From contig CAZMLI010000093.1 of the NCBI GenBank assembly GCA_964566865.1, positions 1 through 13,403 on the forward strand: DNA of 13,403 nucleotides. Reading direction: 5' to 3'. Below, one piece after another: positions 51-12,796 of the stretch (its first letter is position 1; each line of letters starts with the position of its first letter). The notes beneath the pieces were generated by a model. The model saw nothing but the letters and a program-made list of their open reading frames with translations. It searched no databases and was not told the DNA's origin. Both the position numbers and the translations under genes were made by a program. The stretch comes from an uncultured Planctomycetota bacterium (lineage in GTDB: Bacteria > Planctomycetota > JACQVV01 > CAZANL01).

Positions 51-2222
51 TTACTCGAGCAGTCGCTCGCGCGCTTCGAGCAGCGCCTCCTTGGCCGCGG
101 GGTCCTTCTCGATGTCGTAGGCGGTCTTCAGCGCCTTGCGCACCGAGCCATCGCCCAGCAACCCGAGCGCGCGCGCGGCGGCCTGCCGGGTCTCGGGCAA
201 CCCGTGGCGCAGCAACTTGACCAGCGCCGGCACCGCAGAGCTGGCCTTGATCTTGACCAGGGCGAAGGCCGCCAGGCTGGCGATCTGCTTGTCCCCCATC
301 GCGGCCAGCAGCGGTTTGATCGCGCGCTTTTCCTTGCGCCGGGCGAGGTCGTAGCAGGCCTTGATGCGCACCCCGAGATCCTCGTTGCGCAGCCGCTCGA
401 CCGTCACATCGAAGGCGCTCTTGCGCTTGTTCGAGCCGCCGTTCATCATCTGCTCGATCTTCTTGTGGTGCTGCCTGACGGTCTTCTGCAGGTTGGCCAG
501 CCTGCCGCCGAGTCCCTTGCTGCCGATCTTGTAGATGCTCATCAGCCCGCTGTCGTACATGTGTGAGGTGGCCTTGGAGGCCTCCACCCCGCAGTGCGGA
601 TCCCAGAACAACTGATTGAGCCGCTTGAAGGCCGCGGCCACCGGCACCAGCACACAGTAGGCCACCGCGGCGCAGCGAAGTTCGTGGTCCTCGTTATGCA
701 GCAGCTTGACCAGCGCCTCGTCGAACGGGCGCGGCTGCTTGATGTGCGGCATGATCTTCAGCAGCGAGAGCTGCAGCGCCTTGGGACCCTCGCTCAGGTA
801 GCCGGCCAGGTTCGGCACCAGCGCGGGCGCCAGCTCGAGCCGCACCAGCGGAATCTGCAGGTGCTTTTTCAGATGCTCGACCAGCTGCAGCTTGAGCGCC
901 TTGTCGGCCTTCGGCCCCGAGACCTTGAGGATGATGGGCAGAACCCGGGCGCGCTCCTGGTCATCGAACTGGTCGGTATGATAGCCCGCCAGCAGCGCGC
1001 CGAACGAGGCCTGCCGCGTCGCGGGAGTGGCCAGCCCCTCCTCCAGCGCGTCGATCTTGTCCGGGCCGAGCTGGCTGACGATCAGAATCGCGATCAACGA
1101 GACGACCAGCGTGCCGCCACAGATCAGCGCAGCCAGCTTGTTCTTGCGCAGCTTGCGCTTCCAGCGGTCCAGCTTGCTCGGCGGGCGGGCGACGATCGGC
1201 TCGCCCAGCAGGAAGTTGCTGATGTCCATCGCCATCGCCTTGGCGCTGGGGTAGCGCGCCCCGGGCTCCTTGGCCATTGCCTTGAAGACGATCGCGACCA
1301 GATCCGGGTGCATGTCCCGCTGAAACTCGCGCGGGTCCTTGGGGTCGCTGTGCACCACCTTGTAGACCGTCTGCAGCGCGGTCTTGCCCTCGAACGGCGC
1401 GTGGCCGGTCAAGACGTTGTAGAGAATCGCGCCCAGCGAATAGATGTCGGTCGGCGGGCCGAGCTCCAGCGCCTCGGCCTGCTCGGGCGACATGTAGGAC
1501 GGCGTCCCGACGATCTGCCCCTCGATCGACAGCAGGCTGTCGGTGTTCGTATCCTTGGCCAGTCCGAAGTCGAGCAGCTTGAGCACACCGGCCTTGGTCA
1601 CGACCATGTTCGACGGCTTCAGATCGCGATGCAGGATGTTCTCGCTGTGGGCATATTCAATCGCCAGGCAGGCGTCGCGCACCAGCGCCAGCCGCTCATG
1701 AATCGTCACCACGCCGAGCTTCAGATACTCGTCGAGCGGGTGCCCGTCGACGTAGTCCATCGTGAAGAACGGGTTATCCTTGTACTCGCCATAGCCGTGC
1801 ACCGCGACGATGTTGGGATGCGACAGCTTGCCCATCGCCTTGACCTCGCGCTTGAGGCGGCTGATGAAGCGGGGGTCGTCGCGCGCCTCCGGCAGCAACA
1901 TCTTGATCGCCACCGTTCGCTCGATGCCCTCCTGGAAGCCCTTGTACACCACGCCCATGCCGCCCTTGGCAATCACCGAATCGATGCGGTACTTGCCCCA
2001 CTTGATCGGAAGTTTCTTCGCCCCGTCGCCTTGCAGCGGGGTGTCCGAGGCCGGCTGGGCCTGACGCTGCGACTTGCCCATGGCGCCGCTGACCAGCGTG
2101 ATCTCCGAGGAGATATCCGGCGGCGCGAGGTCGCTCATGTCCTCCGGGCAGACATAGCGCCGCTTGTGATCGTAGTTCTTGAAGGCGAAGGTCTTGCCAC
2201 AGGTGCTGCAGGTTAGTTTCAT
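51..2222 (-). CDS. Membrane-anchored Hanks-type Ser/Thr protein kinase (about 723 aa): N-terminal Cys3His zinc-ribbon-like motif, kinase domain, one TM helix, C-terminal HEAT/PBS-lyase-like repeat domain
   Basis: The track ORF 51..2642(-) reads through the true start. I take the start as the ATG at 2222 (MKLTCSTCGKTFAFKNYDHKRRYVCPED), preceded by AGGTGG. Kinase motifs are GKYRIDSVIAKGGMGVVYKG, VAIK, HRDLKPSNMVV, DFGLAKD and GTPSYMSPE. A TM segment LAALICGGTLVVSLIAILIVS follows a K/R-rich stretch. C-terminal repeats of the type ...AIKPLLAAMGD...AAFALVKI...VPALVKLL...AARALGLLGD are typical HEAT_2/PBS-lyase repeats. The stop is TAA at 51-53. Confidence 0.85.
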   Translation of the reverse strand: MKLTCSTCGKTFAFKNYDHKRRYVCPEDMSDLAPPDISSEITLVSGAMGKSQRQAQPASDTPLQGDGAKKLPIKWGKYRIDSVIAKGGMGVVYKGFQEGIERTVAIKMLLPEARDDPRFISRLKREVKAMGKLSHPNIVAVHGYGEYKDNPFFTMDYVDGHPLDEYLKLGVVTIHERLALVRDACLAIEYAHSENILHRDLKPSNMVVTKAGVLKLLDFGLAKDTNTDSLLSIEGQIVGTPSYMSPEQAEALELGPPTDIYSLGAILYNVLTGHAPFEGKTALQTVYKVVHSDPKDPREFQRDMHPDLVAIVFKAMAKEPGARYPSAKAMAMDISNFLLGEPIVARPPSKLDRWKRKLRKNKLAALICGGTLVVSLIAILIVSQLGPDKIDALEEGLATPATRQASFGALLAGYHTDQFDDQERARVLPIILKVSGPKADKALKLQLVEHLKKHLQIPLVRLELAPALVPNLAGYLSEGPKALQLSLLKIMPHIKQPRPFDEALVKLLHNEDHELRCAAVAYCVLVPVAAAFKRLNQLFWDPHCGVEASKATSHMYDSGLMSIYKIGSKGLGGRLANLQKTVRQHHKKIEQMMNGGSNKRKSAFDVTVERLRNEDLGVRIKACYDLARRKEKRAIKPLLAAMGDKQIASLAAFALVKIKASSAVPALVKLLRHGLPETRQAAARALGLLGDGSVRKALKTAYDIEKDPAAKEALLEARERLLE

Positions 2223-2258
2223 CCCACCTGAGAGTATAGCGTACAATCGATCCGCGCG

Positions 2259-5200
2259 ATGACCGAACCATGCCCTCTGACCGCGGCGGAGATGTCTCTG
2301 ATCGGGACATTGCGACTTCCGCCGGATGCGCTCAACCGGGCACTGGCGCTGCGCCGCGAGTATCCGGACCTGCGACGGGCACTGCTCGAGTCGGGCGCGA
2401 TCGGGCCCCACGAACTGCTCGCCGCCCTGACCGCGGCCGGCGTCGCCATCCAGATCGGCCGCTACAAGCTGCTGCGCGAGATTGCCCGCGGCGCGATGGG
2501 CACCGTGCATCTCGCGTTCGACCACGATCTCGACCGGGTCGTTGCGCTCAAGGTGCTCGACAACGTGCAGGACGTCCCCCGCTTCGAGCGCGAAGCCAGG
2601 CTGGCCGCCCGGCTGACGCACGCCCATATCATCCGGATCCACGAGGTGGGCGATTCACCCTGCCACTACATCGCGATGGCCTACATCGACGGCCCCACCC
2701 TGGAGCAGGCGATGCCGGACCTGTCGCAGGAGCGCAAGCTGGCGCTGCTGATCCAGATCGCCGAGGCGGTGGGCCATGGACACAGCAAGGGCGTGATCCA
2801 CCGCGACCTCAAGCCGGCCAACGTGCTGATCGACGAGTTCGAGCGGGCCGTGGTCACCGACTTCGGCCTGGCGCGCGACTACCAGACACAGGACCAGACC
2901 CAGCTGACCGCCACCGGCAGCATCCTGGGCACGCTGGCCTACATGTCGCCCGAGCAGGTTCGCGGAAAGACGGTGGGCCCGACCGCCGACGTCTGGGCTC
3001 TGGGCGTGATTCTCTACGAGATGTTGATGGGCGAGCGCCCGTTTCAGGTTGGCCGGGACCAGTCGATCTACGAGCAGATCCTCGAGAGCGATACCGATCC
3101 GCCCGACGCGCCGCAGGCCCTGCAGCGGATCGTCAGCAAGGCGCTCGACAAGGATCCCGCACGACGCTACGCCGACGGCGCGGCCTTCGCCAAGGCGCTC
3201 CACCAGTTTCAGCAGGGCGGAGCCGTCGAGCATCTGCCGCGCCACTGGCCGTGGATCGCTGCAACCGCGCTGCTGACATTGATCGCATTCGGCGCCTGGC
3301 GCAGGACACGCCCGACGGTTGTCAGCAAGCCGCGGGTTCAGCAGCCGGCGCCGAACGACCAACCGGACCTGGCCCTGCAACAGGAAGCAGAGCGGCGCCG
3401 GCAGGAGCTGGCCGCTTTCCGCCGACTGGTGGTCGAGACCCGCGCCAGTTTCTACGTCGGCCGCACGGACATCCGGGCTCGAATTACAGAACTGACCCGC
3501 GCGCTCAAACTCTGGGACCAGACCGACAGGCGCAAGCAGGACGACGTCTCCGCTCTCTGCGGCATCGGCTGGTACCTCACCGGCCAACCAGGCAAGGCGG
3601 AGCCCTGCCTGCTCGAGGCCCTGCGGCGAAATCCCGAAGACGGCTGGGTCAACCAGACGCTCGGCCGGATCCAGCTCGAGCGCGCGCTCGCCGCGCTGCT
3701 GACCAACGGTCAGGCCGAGGCGCTGCCGCTGACCGGCCGCTGGAGCAGCAAGGCCATGCAGTATCTCGGCCGTGGTAATCAGTGGCCGGACGAGCGCAAG
3801 ATCGAGCGCCACATCGCGCGAGCCTACCACGCGCTGGGCAGGAGCCGGTTCACCGAGCTGCGCCGGCTGTGTCAACAGGGCCTGGCGCGCCATCGCGGAC
3901 CGGGCACGGAGGAGTTCTGGTTCTTGCTTGGCTGGTTGCAGCCTTACAAGCAGCGCATCGTCTCCTGGAACAAGGCACTCGCGCTGCGCCCGCACTATCC
4001 CTGGCTCTCTTACGCCCGCGGCATGTCGCGCTTTCACGCGGGCAAGTTGCAGCTGGCGGCGCAGGACTTCGAGGCCGTCCTGCGGATGCATCCCCGCATG
4101 GCCTGGGGCTACCTCGCGCGCGGGTTGGTGCGCCAGCAGCTCGGGGACGGGCTCCGAGCACTCGATGATTACACCAGCGCGATCGCTCTCGATCACAGCC
4201 TCGTGCTGCCCTACAACAACCGCGGCATCCTCTACCACAACGCCGGTAACTTCACCGCGGCGGTGGCCGACTTCAATCAAGCGCTCAGGCGCGACCCACG
4301 CATGGCCAAGGCCTACAACAACCGGGGCCTGACCTACACCGCGATGGGCAATCCGCTGCGTGCGATCGACGACTTTACCAAGGCGGTCCGGCTGGAGCCC
4401 AGCTATGTCGGCGCCTTCCTCAATCGCGGGGTGGCCCATCGCGCCGCGCGTCAGAAAAAGCAAGCGATCGCGGACTTTGGGGAGGTGATCCGGCTCGATC
4501 CGACCGAGAAGAAGGCCCTGCTCAACCGGGGCGCGCTCTACCTCGAGCTGAATCCACGCCGGTTCAAGGCCGCGCTCGCCGATTTCGACCGCGTGCTGAA
4601 ACTCGACCCGAATTACCTCAAGGCACTCTACAACCGCGCAGTGACCAGACGCGCGATCCGGAACTACCAGGGCGCGCTGACCGACTTCAACCGCCTGATC
4701 AAGCTCGCGCCCATCGCCCATAATCTGGCCCAGCGCGGAATGCTGCTCTGCCTGAGGTTGGGTCAGCACGAGCGGGCAATCGCCGACTTCACCCGCGTGA
4801 TCGCCGCCGATCCAAACCACGTTCAGGCCTACAGCCATCGAGGCATCTCACGACGCGCCCTCAAACGCTTGAAGCCGGCGATCGCCGACTTCTCGCGCGC
4901 GATCGCGCTGAATCCCCGACACGCCAATGCCTACCACAACCGCGCGACGACGCGCACCGAGCTGGGCGATCAGATCGGCGCGATCGCCGACTACACCAGC
5001 GCGCTGGCGATCAACGACCAGCTGGCTTCGACCTACTTCGACCGGGGCACCGCCTACCGCAAGTGCAAGCAGTACCGCAAGGCCGCCGCAGACTACCGGC
5101 AGACCACCATCCTGCAGCCTCACTGGTGGAACAACTGGTTTCACTACGCCGCCCTGCTGGGCACCCTGCAGCGTTTCGAGGAAGCGCTGGCGCCCCTGCG

Positions 5201-5294
5201 CAAGGCCGAGGCGCTGGCCCCTCCCGAGGCCAGGAAGAGCGTGCGCGTATTGATCCGGATGATGCAGGATGCAATCAAGAAGCAGAAGCAGTGA
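2259..5294 (+). CDS. Membrane-anchored Hanks-type Ser/Thr protein kinase with a conserved about 60-aa N-terminal module and a C-terminal array of about 9-10 TPR repeats (1011 aa)
   Basis: ORF 2259..5294. Kinase motifs are IGRYKLLREIARGAMGTVHLA, VALK, HRDLKPANVLI, VTDFGLARD, YMSPEQ, DVWALGVILYEM and DPARRYA. The TM segment is WPWIAATALLTLIAFGAW. There are repeated 34-aa units with the signature AIADF..AI.L.P....AY.NRG. The N-terminal LTAAEMSLIGTL... is conserved with the paralog at 10151, which supports the 2259 start. Confidence 0.9.
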   Translation: MTEPCPLTAAEMSLIGTLRLPPDALNRALALRREYPDLRRALLESGAIGPHELLAALTAAGVAIQIGRYKLLREIARGAMGTVHLAFDHDLDRVVALKVLDNVQDVPRFEREARLAARLTHAHIIRIHEVGDSPCHYIAMAYIDGPTLEQAMPDLSQERKLALLIQIAEAVGHGHSKGVIHRDLKPANVLIDEFERAVVTDFGLARDYQTQDQTQLTATGSILGTLAYMSPEQVRGKTVGPTADVWALGVILYEMLMGERPFQVGRDQSIYEQILESDTDPPDAPQALQRIVSKALDKDPARRYADGAAFAKALHQFQQGGAVEHLPRHWPWIAATALLTLIAFGAWRRTRPTVVSKPRVQQPAPNDQPDLALQQEAERRRQELAAFRRLVVETRASFYVGRTDIRARITELTRALKLWDQTDRRKQDDVSALCGIGWYLTGQPGKAEPCLLEALRRNPEDGWVNQTLGRIQLERALAALLTNGQAEALPLTGRWSSKAMQYLGRGNQWPDERKIERHIARAYHALGRSRFTELRRLCQQGLARHRGPGTEEFWFLLGWLQPYKQRIVSWNKALALRPHYPWLSYARGMSRFHAGKLQLAAQDFEAVLRMHPRMAWGYLARGLVRQQLGDGLRALDDYTSAIALDHSLVLPYNNRGILYHNAGNFTAAVADFNQALRRDPRMAKAYNNRGLTYTAMGNPLRAIDDFTKAVRLEPSYVGAFLNRGVAHRAARQKKQAIADFGEVIRLDPTEKKALLNRGALYLELNPRRFKAALADFDRVLKLDPNYLKALYNRAVTRRAIRNYQGALTDFNRLIKLAPIAHNLAQRGMLLCLRLGQHERAIADFTRVIAADPNHVQAYSHRGISRRALKRLKPAIADFSRAIALNPRHANAYHNRATTRTELGDQIGAIADYTSALAINDQLASTYFDRGTAYRKCKQYRKAAADYRQTTILQPHWWNNWFHYAALLGTLQRFEEALAPLRKAEALAPPEARKSVRVLIRMMQDAIKKQKQ
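4465..4994 (+). repeat. Intragenic DNA-level repeats (GCGATCGC[C/G]GACT[T/A][C/T]) marking recently amplified TPR units
   Basis: Near-identical 15-mers occur at 4465-4479 (gcgatcgcggacttt), 4776-4790 (gcaatcgccgacttc), 4878-4892 (gcgatcgccgacttc) and 4980-4994 (gcgatcgccgactac). The last three are spaced exactly 102 bp apart, which is one 34-codon TPR. Each encodes the AIADF/AIADY motif. Confidence 0.8.
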
Positions 5295-5372
5295 ATCTCC
5301 TTGCAAGTCCGGCCCCGTCCGTTATTCTGCGCTCCTTTGCTAATTGACGCATTGCGTTAGAGGAGTCGGAAG

Positions 5373-6794
5373 ATGGGGCGAACAACTGGAATCCTGACAC
5401 TGCTGCTGCTGGTCTGCGCGCTCGGCTGCGAACCGGGCGAACTCGTCGCCCCGACGATCGATACGCATCCGACCCACAAGACCGCCAACGCCGGACAGAT
5501 CGTCACCCTGCAGGTCGCCGCCAGTGGTTCGGCCAAGCTGCGTTACCAGTGGACCCGGGGTGGCGTCGACATCCCCGGCGCCAGCTACTCGTTCTACATG
5601 AGCCCCGAGCTGACCCTGGCCGACGACGGCGCGCTCTATGCCTGCCGCGTGACCAACAAGGAAGGCAGCGTCACCAGCGGGTCCGCCGTCGTCAGCGTGC
5701 ACGACGCGGTGACGATCAGCCTGCACCGGATCAAGGCCGCCGACGGCTGGACCCTCGGCGTCAAACGCTACCTGCCCAGCGCGGCCATCGCCTCCTACGA
5801 GCCGGTGGTGATGACCCACGGCTTCCTCGAGAGCCACGACGTCTACGACCTGGACAGCACGCACAGCCTGGCCATGTCGGTCGCGCTCGCCGGCTTCGAC
5901 GTCTGGGTGCTCGACCTGCGCGGCAACGGTCTGTCGGCCGGTCCGAAGATCTCCGAGCTGCTCAGCTGGAGCTTCAACATCGACGACTTCATTCACAAGG
6001 ACGCCCCGGCCGTGATCGATCACGTGCTAACGCTGACCGGCAAGTCCCAGGTCTTCTGGGTCGGCCACAGCATGGGTGGACTGGTCGGCTACGCCTACGT
6101 CGAGACCGAGTCGAAGCACAAGATCAAGGGCCTGGTGACGCTCGCCGGCGCCGCCTGGATGGGTGGACCGGCGCAGTTCGATTCCAAGCCGGGCGGCTTC
6201 TTCATGGCGCTCGGCTCCGCGCTCGGCCCCTTCCTGCTGCCGGACTTCCCGGTGCCCGTCGGCTACGCCTGGAAAAAGGGCGCTACCGGCAAGCCCTGGG
6301 CCAAGGCCCTGCACGAATTCCTGCTGACCGACTTCGGCAAGTTCACCTGGTCCACCGAGAACATGGACGCCGCCAGAATCCAGGTCCTGATGGACCGCGC
6401 CGTCGACAATACCAGCGCCAACATGGTGCGCCAGTTCATCGCCTGGACCACCCACGAGGACATCTACACCTACGGCCCCTCGCCCCACGCGCCCCTGTTG
6501 CAAGAGTCCGACTACTACAAGAAACACGGCTTCTACAGCTACAAGGACCACCTCTCGGACATCACCACCCCCGCGCTGCTGATCGCCGGCGAGGTGGACC
6601 AGGTCGTGCCCGCGGCCAACGTGAAGAAGATCTTCGACGCCCTCTCGAGCAGCGACAAGACGTTGAAGATCATCGGCAAGAGTCACGGCCACCCGGTCGA
6701 CGTCGGACACGAGGACATCCTGGCCGGGATCCACTCGCCCGCGCTGGTCTATCCGCTCGTCGTCGAGTGGCTGCTCGCCCGCGCCTCGAAGTAA
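5373..6794 (+). CDS. Lipoprotein: N-terminal Ig-like (I-set-type) domain fused to an acid-lipase-family (gastric/lysosomal lipase-like) alpha/beta hydrolase (473 aa)
   Basis: GAGGAG lies 6 nt upstream of ATG 5373. The signal peptide MGRTTGILTLLLLVCALGC has an ALGC lipobox. The Ig-like signature is YQWTRGG...LTLADDGALYACRVTNKEGSVTSGSAVVSV. The hydrolase region PVVMTHGFLESHDVYDLDSTHSLAMSVALAGFDVWVLDLRGNGLS...FWVGHSMGGLVGYAY...LLIAGEVDQVVP...HGHPVDVGHEDILAG aligns motif-for-motif with human gastric lipase (PVVFLQHGLLAS...[21 protein letters not shown]...HYVGHSQG...AVWNGGNDLLAD...YNHLDFIW). The nucleophile elbow is GHSMG. Confidence 0.85.
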   Translation: MGRTTGILTLLLLVCALGCEPGELVAPTIDTHPTHKTANAGQIVTLQVAASGSAKLRYQWTRGGVDIPGASYSFYMSPELTLADDGALYACRVTNKEGSVTSGSAVVSVHDAVTISLHRIKAADGWTLGVKRYLPSAAIASYEPVVMTHGFLESHDVYDLDSTHSLAMSVALAGFDVWVLDLRGNGLSAGPKISELLSWSFNIDDFIHKDAPAVIDHVLTLTGKSQVFWVGHSMGGLVGYAYVETESKHKIKGLVTLAGAAWMGGPAQFDSKPGGFFMALGSALGPFLLPDFPVPVGYAWKKGATGKPWAKALHEFLLTDFGKFTWSTENMDAARIQVLMDRAVDNTSANMVRQFIAWTTHEDIYTYGPSPHAPLLQESDYYKKHGFYSYKDHLSDITTPALLIAGEVDQVVPAANVKKIFDALSSSDKTLKIIGKSHGHPVDVGHEDILAGIHSPALVYPLVVEWLLARASK

Positions 6795-6875: not shown

Positions 6876-7883
6876 TTACTTGATGCGCGTCACGTATCCG
6901 CCGTGGACCCACTCGGCGCGGTGGTCGTACTGGATCAGCACCCAGGCGCCCGAGCGGGTGATCTCGCGATAGAGCTGTCCTCGGTAGACCGATCCGACGC
7001 GGTTGTTCGAGGCCACCTTGGCGGACCAGCGCGCGTTGAGCCTGGCGGCGGTGACCTTCACCGCTCGCGAGCCGTCGGCGCGGGTGTAGGCGCCCCAGAA
7101 GTAAGCGGTGCGACCGCGCCAGTAGAGACGACGCCAGGAGCCGGTCGTCTTGTCACTGACGTGCACCTTGCCACGCCTGGTCTGGCCCAGCAGCGAACCC
7201 CAGACGCCGGTCCTGACGTTCAAGCGACTGCTGGTCACGGCGCGGGTGGTGACACCGCTCGCCTTGGCGACCGGCTTGGGTGCGGCCTTGGGCGTGACTT
7301 TCGGCGCGGGTTTCGGAGCGGGGGCCGGCTTCGGCGCGGCCACCGGCGGCTTGCCGGTGCGCACGAGGTGGATGAAGTAGTCCCACTTGAAGTGGGGTCC
7401 CGGATCCCAGTGGCTCTGGTTGGGCACTTCCTTGTGGGCGATGATGCGGCTGCGGTCGATCGGGATCTTGTACTTGTCGCAGATGTAGCGGGTCAGCCTG
7501 GCCAGCGACCGGTACTGCGCCTCGGTCCAGAGGTTCTTGCCGGCGTAGCCCTCGTTTTCGATGCCGATCGAACTGGAGTTGTAAGTCCAGTTGCCGGCGT
7601 GCCAGGCGATGTCCTTCTCGCGAATCATCTGCGTGACCGCCCCGGTCTTGCTGACGATGTAGTGCGCGGACACCTTCGAGCCCGGGTTCTTGAACCAGGA
7701 GATCGCACCGGCGGCGCTGCCTTCGATGGTATGGATGATGACGTAGCGGATCGAACGGCTCGATCGCTTGGTGTAGTGCACGCCTTGCGTGTAGCTGGCC
7801 CCCGGATATTCCGAGCCGGCGGTCGCCGACAGCGGCAGGCCGATCAGGCAGGCGATGATCAAGAGTGTTGTTCTGGTCCCCAT
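6876..7883 (-). CDS. Secreted (Sec or lipoprotein signal) N-acetylmuramoyl-L-alanine amidase (Amidase_2/PGRP fold) with a Pro/Ala/Lys-rich linker and two C-terminal SH3b cell-wall-binding domains (335 aa)
   Basis: Only the C-terminal 335 codons of track ORF 6876..9887(-) are real. The ATG at 7883 is preceded by a perfect AAGGAGG (7889-7895, 5-nt spacer). The signal peptide is MGTRTTLLIIACLIGLPLSATAG. Amidase_2 motifs are YVIIHTIEGSAAG, SAHYIVSKTG, AWHAGNW, SIGIENEG and IIAHKEV. The linker is PPVAAPKPAPAPKPAPKVTPKAAPKP. Two SH3b-like units follow (RLNVRTGVWGS...WRRLYWRGRTAYFWGAY and RLNARWSAK...YRGQ...WVLIQYDHRAEWVHGGYV). Confidence 0.9.
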   Translation of the reverse strand: MGTRTTLLIIACLIGLPLSATAGSEYPGASYTQGVHYTKRSSRSIRYVIIHTIEGSAAGAISWFKNPGSKVSAHYIVSKTGAVTQMIREKDIAWHAGNWTYNSSSIGIENEGYAGKNLWTEAQYRSLARLTRYICDKYKIPIDRSRIIAHKEVPNQSHWDPGPHFKWDYFIHLVRTGKPPVAAPKPAPAPKPAPKVTPKAAPKPVAKASGVTTRAVTSSRLNVRTGVWGSLLGQTRRGKVHVSDKTTGSWRRLYWRGRTAYFWGAYTRADGSRAVKVTAARLNARWSAKVASNNRVGSVYRGQLYREITRSGAWVLIQYDHRAEWVHGGYVTRIK

Positions 7884-7916
7884 TTGAGCCTCCTTGGTTA
7901 GGATGCTCAGCCTATG

Positions 7917-7932
7917 AGCAATTGGCGTGCCC
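7917..7932 (-). promoter_or_regulatory. Sigma-54 (-24/-12) promoter oriented toward the amidase gene
   Basis: On the minus strand, the revcomp of 7917-7932 reads GGGCACGCCAATTGCT, which is GGCACG-N4-TTGCT against the consensus TGGCACG-N4-TTGCW. The GG is at 7931-7930 and the GC at 7919-7918. The predicted TSS is near 7906, giving a 23-nt leader (GCAUCCUAACCAAGGAGGCUCAA) that contains the SD before ATG 7883. Confidence 0.6.
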
Positions 7933-7949
7933 CTGCCGAAATAAATTCT

Positions 7950-7973
7950 CAAGTCATTGATACCAAATGACTT
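7950..7973. promoter_or_regulatory. IHF-like site inside an 8-bp perfect inverted repeat (AAGTCATT-N7-AATGACTT) in an AT-rich island
   Basis: The revcomp of 7950-7962 is TATCAATGACTTG, an exact fit to the IHF consensus WATCAANNNNTTR. It is centred about -50 relative to the predicted sigma-54 TSS. The inverted-repeat arms are at 7951-7958 and 7966-7973. The region 7938-7975 is conspicuously AT-rich in a 70% GC background. Confidence 0.45.
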
Positions 7974-7997
7974 GCATGGTTGACGGCCGCATGCGGC

Positions 7998-8044
7998 GGC
8001 GGAAAAACCGCCGTGGCGAGCGGGGCTGTGGCGGAAAAACCGCC
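7998..8044. repeat. Two tandem copies of a palindromic hairpin repeat GGCGG-AAAAA-CCGCC, candidate UAS/enhancer sites
   Basis: Copy 1 is at 7998-8012 and copy 2 at 8030-8044. The centres are 32 bp apart, about three helical turns. They lie about -99 and -131 relative to the predicted sigma-54 TSS, immediately upstream of the bEBP start codon. Flanking bases extend each stem (c7997/g8013; c8026-g8029 with c8045-g8048). Confidence 0.6.
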
Positions 8045-8066
8045 GCGGATTTGCTCTAATGGCCGC

Positions 8067-10150
<2,084 letters not shown>

Positions 10151-10154
<4 letters not shown>

Positions 10155-11221
10155 GCGATCTGACCGCGGCCGAGCTGGCCCTGGTCGCGACCCTGACACA
10201 AGAGAAGCTGCTCTCCCCAGCGGCATTGAGCGCGACCCTCGGCCGACGCCGCGAACTGCCGCACCTGATCGATGCGCTGCTCGAGACGCTCGCCATCTCG
10301 GCGAACGAGATCGAGGGCGCGCTCTCGCGCAGCGGCCTGTCGCTGCTACTGTGCAGCGCCTGCAGCCGCGACTGGCTGGCGCGCCTGGGCGAAGGCTGTC
10401 CCGACTGCGGCCAGGCCGGCGAGTCCCGACCGCTGCTGTCCCGCATCGGGCGCTATCGGGTGCTGCGCGAGCTGGGCCAGGGCGGCATGGGCGTGATCTA
10501 CGAGGCGCTCGACGAACGGCTCGGGCGCAACGTCGCGATCAAGTTGATTCGCGATCCAGGCAGTCGACATCGGCCGCACACTCGCGGCGCTGGAGAGATC
10601 TTTGAATCGGGCCGAAACGCTGGCGGCGCTGCCCGGCAGCCCCGAGCCCGTGCTCTGGCGCTTGATCGGCGCCGGCTGGTATCTGCTCGGCTGGACCGAG
10701 CGCGCCGAGCGGGCGCTGCGACTTGCCCCCGAGGATGCCAGGGCCCGCTACTACATGGCCCGCATCGCGCTCGACCGCGCGCGCATCGCGCTGGCCGGCG
10801 GCCCGAGGGGCCGGACCGCCCGCTCGCGCAGTCAACTGCGTCAGGCGCTGCAGCTACTGCAAAGCGCCAGCGCTGCGGCCAGTCCGCTGGACCGCCAGGT
10901 CTGCCAGGCCTGCAGGACTACCGGGGCGCGCTGGCCGACTTCAACCGCGCACTCGTGCTCAAACCCGATGGGCCGGCGGCGCTGTTCAATCGCGGGCGAA
11001 CCCACGCGATGATGGGCGATCTGACCGCGGCCGTCCGCGACTACCGCGCGCTGCTGGCGCGTCAGCCGAAGTTCGCAGGCGCCTGGCTCTCTCTGGATCG
11101 CGCGCTGGCCGCACTCGGCAAGCGCGAGGACGCGCTGGTGACATTGCGCACCGGCCGCGCGCTGGCCAAGGGGCCGCTACGCGCACAGTTCGACGCCTCG
11201 ATCGCGCATCTCAGCAAATAA
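10151..11221 (+). pseudogene. Decayed paralog of the 2259..5294 Ser/Thr kinase-TPR gene: intact N-terminal module, Cys4 zinc ribbon and kinase subdomains I-II, then two large internal deletions with frame changes, ending in about 2 TPRs and the conserved C-terminus
   Basis: The start GTG at 10151 overlaps the bEBP stop (GTGA). Frame 1 residues 1-134 align to kinase A residues 1-105 (LTAAELALVATL / IGRYRVLRELGQGGMGVIYEA / VAIKLIRD against LTAAEMSLIGTL / IGRYKLLREIARGAMGTVHLA / VALKVLDN). After about 10550, frame 1 becomes R/P/G-rich nonsense. Homology to A residues about 398-470 continues in frame 3 (10548-11012: DIGRTLAALERSL...LIGAGWYLLGW...APEDARARYYMARIALDRARIAL against DIRARITELTRAL...LCGIGWYLTGQ...NPEDGWVNQTLGRIQLERALAAL). 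Frame 1 is homologous again from about 10900 (QDYRGALADFNRALVLKPDGPAALFNRG... against NYQGALTDFNRLIKLAP... and the shared C-terminal LDRALAALGKREDALVTLR / YAALLGTLQRFEEALAPLR). The catalytic loop, DFG, APE and TM are absent. Confidence 0.55.
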
Positions 11222-11430: not shown

Positions 11431-11631
11431 TTGAAAGGCGATCGAGGGGTTTTGGTTGGAGGGGGGCGGCCGTCGCGCCTGCCCGTCCGCTGTCAGACCG
11501 TCAGTCGGACTGATCGCGGGCAGCATGCGACGGCGCCCTGCAGCATGCGGATACCGCCGGGACCAGAAGTCTGTGAGCAGTCGGGAACAGACGGCGGCAC
11601 CGGCTCAAGTAGTGCTCCGCGCTAGAGGTGT

Positions 11632-11668
11632 GGTGGACCGGTGGTCCGCCTCCCGAAGACCTTTTTTT
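11632..11668 (+). terminator. Terminator-like hairpin plus U7 tract inside the 5' leader of the SPFH gene (possible attenuator)
   Basis: The stem GGTGGACC (11632-11639) pairs with GGTCCGCC (11643-11650) with one G-U pair. TTTTTTT at 11662-11668 lies 11 nt downstream. Only 33 nt separate the T-run from ATG 11702. A small second hairpin CGCAC-cacga-GTGCG (11674-11688) abuts the SD GGGAGGG. Confidence 0.35.
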
Positions 11669-11701
11669 ACTCACGCACCACGAGTGCGGGAGGGTGAACC
11701 G

Positions 11702-12796
11702 ATGCTGATGATTCGTAAGTTCAAGGTTCGTGAGCACGAGCGGGGCTTCCTGTTCCGTGACCGCGAGTTCGTCAAGATCCTGCAGCCGGGCGTCTACCGC
11801 CACTTCGATCCGCTGTACAAGCTGCGTGTCGACCTGGTGAACGTGCGCAAGCCGTGGATCGAGCACGACGAGCTGGACGTGATCCTCAAGTCCGGACCCA
11901 ACGGCAAGGAGATGCGTGTGCTCGACCTGGCTGACGATCAGCGTGCGCTGGTCTGGATCGACGGCCGCTTCGCCGCGGTCGTCGGCCCGGGACTGTCGGC
12001 GCTGTGGACGGTTTTTCAGAGCGTCCAGGTCGAGATCGTCGACGCGCGTGAGGTGCGGTTCGAGCACGGTAGGCTGACGGCGATGCTGGACAGCCCGCTA
12101 CTGCACACGCACGAGGTCGCGCACGGCGAGGTCGCCCTGTACTTCCATGACGGCGCGTACCAGACGACCCTGAGTCCGGGTACGCACGCCTTCTGGACGG
12201 GCCAGGGCAAGGTCCTGTTGCGCAGTGTGGATCTGCGTGAGCGGATGCTGGATGTCAACGGTCAGGAGATGATGACCGCTGACAAGGTGACGTTGCGACT
12301 GAATGCGGTCGTGACCTTCAAGGTGACCGACCCGTTGCGGGCGGTGACCGAGACGGCCGACTTCACGCAGGCGCTGTACCGTGACGCGCAGCTGATCCTG
12401 CGGGCCGCGGTCGGTGCGCGCGAGCTGGATACCTTGCTCAGTGAGAAGACGGCGCTGGCGGAGGAGCTGGCCGAGGCGCTGGTCGGTCGTGCTGCGGAGT
12501 ATGGCGTTACAGTAGGACGGGTGGGAATCCGTGACGTGATCCTGCCCGGCGAGATGAAGGACCTGATGAACCAGGTCATCGAAGCTCGCAAGGCTGCGGA
12601 GGCGCAGCTGGTGACGCGTCGGGAGGAGACGGCCGCCATGCGGTCCCAGGCCAATACGGCCAAGATCCTGGAGGCCAACCCGACGCTGATGCGCCTGCGT
12701 GAGCTGGAGGTACTGGAGAAGGTTGCCGAGTTTGGCAAGCTGAACCTGGTGGTCGGAGAGAAGGGATTGACCGACCGGGTGATGAACCTGCTCTAG
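11702..12796 (+). CDS. SPFH/band-7 (stomatin/prohibitin-like) domain protein without a TM helix, with an N-terminal extension made of extra copies of the SPFH N-terminal beta-hairpin segment (364 aa)
   Basis: The SD GGGAGGG (11688-11694) precedes ATG 11702 (MLMIRKFKVREHERGFLF). The track ORF starts at TTG 11456, but that extension is R/A/G-rich junk. SPFH core: NGQEMMTADKVTLRLNAVVTFKVTDPLRAV...AQLILRAAVGARELDTLLSEKTALAEEL...YGVTVGRVGIRDVILPGEMKDLMNQVIEARKAAEAQ...AEFGKLNLVV. The N-terminal extension repeats a motif three times: GFLFRDREFVKILQPGVYRHFDP / ALVWIDGRFAAVVGPGLSALWTV / ALYFHDGAYQTTLSPGTHAFWTG. Confidence 0.85.
   Translation: MLMIRKFKVREHERGFLFRDREFVKILQPGVYRHFDPLYKLRVDLVNVRKPWIEHDELDVILKSGPNGKEMRVLDLADDQRALVWIDGRFAAVVGPGLSALWTVFQSVQVEIVDAREVRFEHGRLTAMLDSPLLHTHEVAHGEVALYFHDGAYQTTLSPGTHAFWTGQGKVLLRSVDLRERMLDVNGQEMMTADKVTLRLNAVVTFKVTDPLRAVTETADFTQALYRDAQLILRAAVGARELDTLLSEKTALAEELAEALVGRAAEYGVTVGRVGIRDVILPGEMKDLMNQVIEARKAAEAQLVTRREETAAMRSQANTAKILEANPTLMRLRELEVLEKVAEFGKLNLVVGEKGLTDRVMNLL

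Follow-up and report, generated by a model that had tools for sequence, protein, structure and literature searches.

The window analysed here is the whole 13,403-nucleotide contig CAZMLI010000093.1 of an uncultured Planctomycetota bacterium (assembly GCA_964566865.1; GC content about 65%), and the gene under study, at positions 5373 to 6794, codes for a protein in which an immunoglobulin (Ig)-like domain precedes an alpha/beta hydrolase. The sequence profile and the predicted fold of this hydrolase fit the gastric and lysosomal acid lipases far better than any other hydrolase of solved structure. The protein is at home in a Planctomycetota-like genome, is a member of a large bacterial family and is not derived from a eukaryote. 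In our judgement it is likely to be an exported, probably membrane-tethered serine esterase or lipase, and its family the bacterial counterpart of the eukaryotic acid lipases; as predicted from the sequence, its role is most likely that of an extracytoplasmic lipid esterase held at the membrane. An earlier interpretation made from the DNA letters alone (the sequence-only reading) had described the gene as a eukaryote-type acid lipase fused to an Ig domain and exported as a lipoprotein. The open reading frame on which it was based was reproduced, on the plus strand, with 473 codons and GAGGAG upstream, and the identical protein is found in a public collection (P0001). The features of the gene are as follows.

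5373..6794, plus strand: complete open reading frame of 473 amino acids plus stop, taken from its first start, an ATG; it codes for a signal peptide, an Ig domain and an acid-lipase-like alpha/beta hydrolase.
5359..5364, plus strand: Shine-Dalgarno-like GAGGAG, about 8 nt 5' of the ATG, read off the upstream sequence.
5373..5426, plus strand: signal peptide, residues 1-18 (MGRTTGILTLLLLVCALG), a short n-region with Arg3 followed by a hydrophobic core.
5427..5429, plus strand: Cys19, the candidate lipid-modified +1 Cys of a non-canonical lipobox, A-L-G-C, with E-P next.
5451..5702, plus strand: I-set-type Ig-like beta-sandwich, residues 27-110, with the core YQW...Y.C.VTN..GSVTS, from Pfam, PDB matches and the structural model.
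5706..6791, plus strand: acid-lipase-like alpha/beta hydrolase domain, residues 112-473.
5715..5846, plus strand: N-terminal strand region, residues 115-158, the counterpart of Pfam Abhydro_lipase (PF04083) as a sub-threshold match, with the HG oxyanion dipeptide H149-G150.
6063..6080, plus strand: nucleophile elbow GHSMGG, residues 231-236, invariant in 17 of 17 family members and aligned with the acid-lipase GHSQG.
6069-6071, plus strand: codon of Ser233, within GHSMGG.
6150..6542, plus strand: cap or lid insertion at about residues 260-390, mostly helical and including the hydrophobic stretch GGFFMALGSALGPFLLPDFPVPVGY.
6597..6599, plus strand: catalytic Asp409 (AGEVDQVVP), invariant, aligned with the Asp of gastric lipase NGGNDLLAD.
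6708..6710, plus strand: catalytic His446 (VGHEDIL), invariant, aligned with the His of gastric lipase YNHLDFI.

In a phmmer comparison of the protein with the PDB, lysosomal acid lipase 6v7n leads the hydrolases at 9e-13, ahead of the gastric lipases of dog (1k8q, 1e-12) and human (1hlg, 2e-12), and the next hydrolase follows only at 4e-5. BLASTP aligns the protein with human gastric lipase at 32% identity over 157 residues (E 1e-16), a stretch of the N-terminal half that runs from PVV..HG.L.S...SLA..LA.AG.DVW....RGN through GHSxG. The gastric-lipase blocks and the GHSxG elbow that the sequence-only reading had picked out in this half are thus present, well above chance. That reading had also aligned the C-terminal Asp and His blocks, and here only a part of the claim stands: the C-terminal half has no BLASTP match to human gastric lipase and pairwise alignment is not significant there, but the two blocks do align at the level of profile and fold. 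A profile of 17 bacterial homologues (A2), run against the PDB, extends over the three acid lipases end to end (E 1.2e-31 to 8.9e-31), including the cap and the Asp and His blocks, in which aGeeDqvvp is paired with NGGNDLLAD and yGHeDlv with YNHLDFI; the next structure comes at 1.6e-14. Moreover, when the AlphaFold model of the protein (mean predicted local distance difference test, pLDDT, 89.4; predicted template modelling score 0.88) is searched with Foldseek, acid lipases occupy the top four positions (3e-22 to 1.5e-18), and the next match has an E-value of 3e-15.

The eukaryotic acid lipases (1hlg/1k8q and 6v7n) have HG, GHSxG, the Asp block and the His block in the same order and context as the window protein, share with it the N-terminal segment PVV..HG...SLA..LA.AG.DVW...RGN, and carry a large helical cap after the nucleophile strand region, as does the superposable model of the window protein. 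They are also extracytoplasmic, by way of the secretory pathway, like the predicted location of the window protein. The differences lie in the elbow (GHSQG in the acid lipases, GHSMG here), in the bacterial signal peptide and lipobox, the N-terminal Ig domain and the sub-threshold PF04083 match of the window protein, and in the cysteines. A cap disulfide and N-glycosylation are features of the animal acid lipases of the secretory pathway, as seen in the structure of gastric lipase. In contrast, C15, C19 and C91 are the only cysteines of the whole window protein and none lies in the hydrolase domain, so that the cap disulfide is absent. The monoacylglycerol lipases (Rv0183, 6eic/7ozm, and human MGLL) and the putative Sulfolobus lipase 2rau have a much smaller cap, no N-terminal acid-lipase segment, and a profile E-value 17 orders of magnitude weaker than that of the acid lipases.

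The catalytic triad, Ser233, Asp409 and His446, is intact and invariant across the 17 homologues, and the residues invariant in the family comprise D124, P144, G150, R183-G184, D210, GHSMGG, D409 and H446-x-D448. The best Pfam models are the generic Hydrolase_4 (86 bits) and Abhydrolase_1 (81 bits), over residues ~144-440, and in a scan of the window protein against NCBIfam no model came near its cut-off. The Abhydro_lipase module, which had been taken as a mark of the acid lipase family in this protein, falls short of its threshold, with 12.5 bits (E 0.11) against a cut-off of 27 for PF04083. Among the relatives, P0005 (32.3) and P0206 (28.3) pass, others remain below (24.9, 21.2 and 20.8), and the model is matched at E<=0.1 in 8 of 17. 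These graded scores across the family mark the module as one inherited from the ancestor of the group as a whole, and not as a eukaryotic signature.

A HMMER scan with the family profile covered 1.84 billion cluster representatives (50% identity clusters), of which at least 1657 match at E<=1e-30; the best 150 are all below 1e-88 and mostly 330-400 residues long. The solved acid lipases score about 113 bits, equivalent to about 1e-27 once rescaled to the larger library, and all 1657 clusters would thus be closer to the profile than the acid lipases are. The taxonomy of the relatives rests on few source names; the named ones are bacterial (Planctomycetes/Planctomycetota, Deltaproteobacteria, Candidatus Binatia and Hydrogenedentes/Hydrogenedentota) or otherwise plant, the Viridiplantae relatives being from Tetradesmus, Ceratodon, Iris, Rhodamnia and Escallonia. 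With a family of this size, and with close relatives that, where named, are bacterial or plant, the gene is not the unusual eukaryote-type one it had seemed. The prokaryotic members of this "alpha/beta fold hydrolase" family, such as P0005 and P0043 (Planctomycetota), P0011 (Deltaproteobacteria), P0205 (Binatia) and P0210 and P0215 (Hydrogenedentota), are 28-46% identical to the window protein over the whole hydrolase domain, have the same invariant residues, and are mostly N-terminally anchored or exported; the window protein belongs among them. Their annotations are generic: pimeloyl-ACP methyl ester carboxylesterase, polyhydroxyalkanoate (PHA) synthase, or alpha/beta hydrolase. A scan of genome contigs returned a single true relative, L001, a contig of a metagenome-assembled genome of an uncultured Planctomycetota bacterium, which carries P0002 (67% identity).

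In a neighbour-joining tree of 136 hydrolase domains (200 bootstraps), the three Ig-fused proteins, that is, the window protein, P0002 and P0004, are grouped together in 200 of 200 replicates, and 175/200 join them to the Ig-less Planctomycetota proteins P0005, P0043, P0006, P0044, P0007, P0045 and P0196. The three animal lipases form a long branch of their own (200/200), and the animal lipases and the family together are split from the generic abhydrolases in 158 of the 200 replicates. The proteins from green algae and land plants (P0223, P0226, P0228, P0229 and P0031) branch among the bacterial members, apart from the animal acid lipases. Arabidopsis At1g73750, a plastoglobule alpha/beta hydrolase according to published papers, is presumably also a member of the family; it was not used as evidence.

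The sequence-only reading had also proposed an I-set-like Ig domain fused to the hydrolase, and this is borne out. I-set (PF07679) marginally passes its Pfam cut-off over residues 27-105 (24.0 bits against 23.7), with Ig_3 (27.5 against 30) and Ig_2 (21.6 against 27) both below theirs, and the region is modelled as a beta-sandwich with strands over residues 28-110 (block-mean pLDDT ~85-97 over residues 21-110). The Y.C.V.N core, however, had been called vertebrate-looking, and it proves to be the signature of an Ig repeat common in phage tails and exported bacterial enzymes. The best PDB matches of the domain are the phage Ig-like chains 9ncf_S and 9c2d_S (a tail protein), with 33.9-42.7 bits per repeat by phmmer and, for one 9c2d repeat, 35 identical residues out of 86 (~41%); the eukaryotic I-set domains of MALT1, contactin and sidekick match more weakly. 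The phage repeats and exported proteins of Planctomycetota/Phycisphaerae (P0010, P0016, P0022 and P0024) share with the window protein the signature P.I...P......G....L.V.A.G...YQW...G..I.GA....Y......D.G.Y.C.VTN..GSVTS..A.V.V. The lone Cys of the Ig domain, C91, is in the F strand (YACRV) and the B strand reads VTLQVAA, which makes the classical B-F disulfide impossible; in the aligned phage repeats the F-strand Cys likewise stands alone. Whereas the phage repeats form tandem arrays, the window protein has one copy, at the extreme N-terminus right after the lipobox. Bacterial Ig modules are accessory parts on exported enzymes, as in the window protein. Metagenomic proteins carry this repeat, at 35-50% identity, on many unrelated exported enzymes and propellers, including NHL, Exo_endo_phos, PQQ/BamB-like, BNR, glucose/sorbosone dehydrogenase (GSDH), GH95 and S41 peptidase partners, and a Phycisphaerae protein is among its carriers.

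The combination of this Ig domain with the hydrolase is far rarer. In ~5.8 billion clusters it occurs only in the window protein, P0002 (67% identity) and P0004 (62%), and the Ig domain between anchor and hydrolase is not a feature of the rest of the prokaryotic family. It moves the nucleophile to residue ~230, as compared with 140-160 in the relatives. Rare as the architecture is, and specific to one lineage, the Ig fusion is a case of ordinary shuffling of a promiscuous accessory module. P0003 is the window protein again, shortened to 406 residues on a contig of the Joint Genome Institute (JGI). The JGI metagenome contig 3300033050 (L005 7442-7856) follows window positions 6200-6500 with one mismatch up to ~6315 and is unrelated afterwards; a probable chimeric end of L005 would explain why P0003 is truncated at 406 residues and divergent past residue ~315. 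Elsewhere in the family, P0108 (1030 residues) has a subtilase S8 domain and a PKD domain ahead of the same acid-lipase-like hydrolase, and long N-terminal extensions are also present in P0186 and P0095, so that additions in front of this hydrolase were made several times independently. The subtilase and PKD domains of P0108, taken with the Ig fusion, indicate that N-terminal beta-sandwich additions arose more than once.

The sequence-only reading had offered two origins for the gene, horizontal acquisition from a eukaryote or an ancient bacterial branch with a putative role in the digestion of membrane lipids. A recent acquisition of a eukaryotic acid lipase of the gastric/lysosomal type, with the Ig domain fused later, could appeal to the acid lipases as the closest solved structures and to the I-set domain, with its weaker matches to Ig domains of eukaryotes. 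Nevertheless, we regard it as very improbable. Identity to the animal enzymes is 32% in the N-terminal half and ~20% overall, as against 40-46% to Planctomycetota proteins; the protein lies inside the Planctomycetota subclade, with its 175 of 200 bootstraps, of the family of at least 1657 clusters; PF04083 is below threshold; the hydrolase domain is devoid of Cys and hence of a cap disulfide; and the closest relatives of the Ig domain are phage and bacterial. Moreover, a comparison of codon usage with the neighbours, suggested along with the idea of transfer, gave no foreign signal, since the GC content at third codon positions (GC3) is 0.92, the same as in the neighbouring genes, and relative synonymous codon usage (RSCU) correlates with that of the pooled neighbours at r 0.95. 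Transfer from a eukaryote to a bacterium was therefore rejected on the phylogeny, the native codon usage and the size of the family, none of which gives any sign of inter-domain gene transfer. Both observations that the sequence-only reading had named in advance as refuting it were made: the best profile matches are to generic abhydrolases, with the Abhydro_lipase module below threshold, and the protein nests in a large prokaryotic family. An ancient bacterial branch is consistent with the data. A search of the literature on bacterial acid-lipase homologues or Planctomycetes Ig-lipases returned nothing relevant.

Residues 1-18 form the strongest hydropathy peak of the protein and a helix (3-17) in the predicted structure. 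The lipobox reported by the sequence-only reading holds up as an export signal with a conserved Cys19, but not as a canonical motif. All three Ig-fused orthologues (the window protein, P0002 and P0004) share an invariant L-[GA]-C-E-P; the candidate lipoboxes of the other two, T-L-G-C and W-L-A-C, are compatible by eye with a permissive rule, and canonical lipoboxes are present in the relatives P0008, P0021, P0110, P0146 and P0189. Considering 200 family members, a hydrophobic N-terminus (a transmembrane anchor or signal peptide) is found in 131 and a lipobox-like motif in 25, 10 of these canonical; altogether 156 begin with a hydrophobic anchor, a signal peptide or a lipobox, and a location at the membrane or outside the cytoplasm is thus a trait of the family. 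In the closest Ig-less relatives (P0005, P0043, P0044 and P0007) the signal peptide is plain and has no Cys, which suggests that lipid anchor and spacer came at the same time in the Ig-bearing lineage. With some reservation, we favour a predicted lipoprotein, lipidated at the candidate Cys19. The enzyme would then be exported by Sec, lipidated at Cys19 and left hanging from the membrane, with an Ig domain that a small lineage may have acquired between anchor and catalytic domain. Possibly, the hydrophobic cap (GGFFMALGSALGPFLLPDFPVPVGY) opens at a lipid interface, and the hydrolase would cleave carboxylic esters of hydrophobic substrates outside the cytoplasm, such as acylglycerols, steryl or wax esters, or lysolipids.

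A number of points weigh against a membrane-tethered lipid esterase related in this way to the acid lipases. The label "lipase" rests on homology at ~20% identity, and the cap, which determines the substrate, is the least confident part of the model (pLDDT 63-91). A rigid spacer and/or a module that binds a surface or glycan is a purely conjectural role for the Ig domain. The family is monophyletic without the animal lipases in just 25 of 200 bootstrap replicates, and the animal lipases may attach either outside the family or within its base. A conserved operon was sought in the contigs of P0005, P0002 and P0003 and none was found, the neighbours being different: genes of the xanthine-dehydrogenase type with an aldehyde dehydrogenase, DUF502, and the Ser/Thr kinases of this window. 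As to the anchor, A-L-G-C19 does not match the strict lipobox [LVI][ASTVI][GAS]C, having Leu at -2, and misses a PS51257-like rule solely through the Cys at -4. Finally, were signal peptidase I to cut behind A-L-G, the enzyme would be soluble, periplasmic or secreted, as in the closest Ig-less relatives P0005, P0043 and P0044.

Such a cut (A-L-G|C), freeing the Ig-hydrolase into the periplasm or the medium, is a possible but clearly less probable course than lipidation. The mismatch to the strict lipobox patterns speaks for it, as do the Ala at -3 and Gly at -1, which are compatible with the AxA-type rule, and the Cys-free signal peptides of the nearest Ig-less relatives, listed above. However, the Cys and L-[GA]-C-E-P are kept in all three Ig-fused orthologues despite identities of 62-67%, P0004 has at -3 a Trp, poor for signal peptidase I, a Cys at position 18-20 is typical of lipoproteins, and several other family members have canonical lipoboxes. 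As for the reaction, the enzyme might act on PHA or another polyester and not on lipid esters, as a depolymerase, an oligomer hydrolase or an acyltransferase resembling PHA synthase. NCBIfam gives weak matches to class III PhaC (2e-9) and to an intracellular PHA depolymerase (1.5e-8), and one relative is named "polyhydroxyalkanoate synthase" by JGI. We consider this improbable: the NCBIfam scores are far under the cut-offs (TIGR01836, 36.8 against 365.3 bits), the acid lipases are by far the better match in sequence and fold, and PHA granules lie in the cytoplasm, from which this protein is exported. The nucleophile, moreover, is a Ser (GHSMGG) in place of the Cys that PHA synthases have in G-x-C-x-G; on this Ser elbow and on scores well short of the cut-off, a PHA synthase was rejected. 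A peptidase of the S33 type, that is, a proline iminopeptidase or serine aminopeptidase with no esterase function, is more improbable still; ranked less likely than an esterase or lipase, it was rejected as well. An exported serine esterase or lipase, probably tethered through Cys19, remains the preferred assignment.

The gene context yields no functional hint. The other genes of the window are as follows.

2259-5294, plus strand: Ser/Thr kinase with tetratricopeptide repeats (Pkinase and TPR), upstream of the hydrolase gene and on the same strand.
51-2642, minus strand: Ser/Thr kinase with Pkinase and HEAT, divergent from the 2259-5294 kinase.
6876-7835, minus strand: secreted N-acetylmuramoyl-L-alanine amidase (Amidase_2, 128 bits), downstream of the hydrolase gene and convergent with it.
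7980-10154, plus strand: sigma-54-dependent activator in which a GAF domain at the N-terminus and a weak, partial GGDEF-like stretch precede AAA+.
10151-11221, plus strand: apparent decayed paralogue of the 2259-5294 kinase-TPR gene.
11456-12796, plus strand: SPFH/Band 7 gene, whose codon usage is the least typical of all genes of the window (GC3 0.81; RSCU r 0.77 when compared with the others).

A scan for promoters and terminators between 5200 and 7000 gave no signal above chance and none that was convincing. The JGI call of the minus-strand kinase (723 residues) puts its start near 2222, which leaves an intergenic gap of ~36 bp. The amidase has a Pro/Ala/Lys-rich linker and a C-terminal domain without a Pfam match; a 1003-residue frame at 6876-9887 is a high-GC read-through artefact, overlapping the sigma-54 activator gene on the opposite strand. 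In the decayed paralogue at 10151-11221 the N-terminal region, the GxGxxG loop and VAIK are kept, the remaining kinase domain is missing, and the tetratricopeptide repeats resume at the C-terminus; frame 0 is Arg-rich past residue ~135, and frame +1 resembles the middle of the intact paralogue. It is probably a frameshifted pseudogene or the result of a sequencing error. The annotated TTG start of the SPFH gene adds an Arg-rich leader of ~80 residues that is probably untranslated.

The protein adds a rare domain architecture to a kind of hydrolase that is already known. A more far-reaching scenario, to which we attach little probability, is that the large prokaryotic family was the stock of the eukaryotic acid lipases and of a plant and algal plastid branch, and that the Ig-bearing version is a surface hydrolase of neutral lipids or steryl esters, its phage-tail-like Ig domain docking on a glycan or particle surface for the harvest of exogenous lipid. 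If true, this would be a bacterial parallel to lipolysis in the lysosome and the stomach. Some members of the Planctomycetota are reported to make sterols. In any event, the value of the finding itself is modest, and the more useful by-product is the recognition that the gastric/lysosomal lipase fold, including its cap, has a large, mostly membrane-anchored and uncharacterised prokaryotic counterpart, of at least 1657 clusters at 50% identity. Characterising one of its members would give the family its first function and provide an outgroup for the evolution of the acid lipases.

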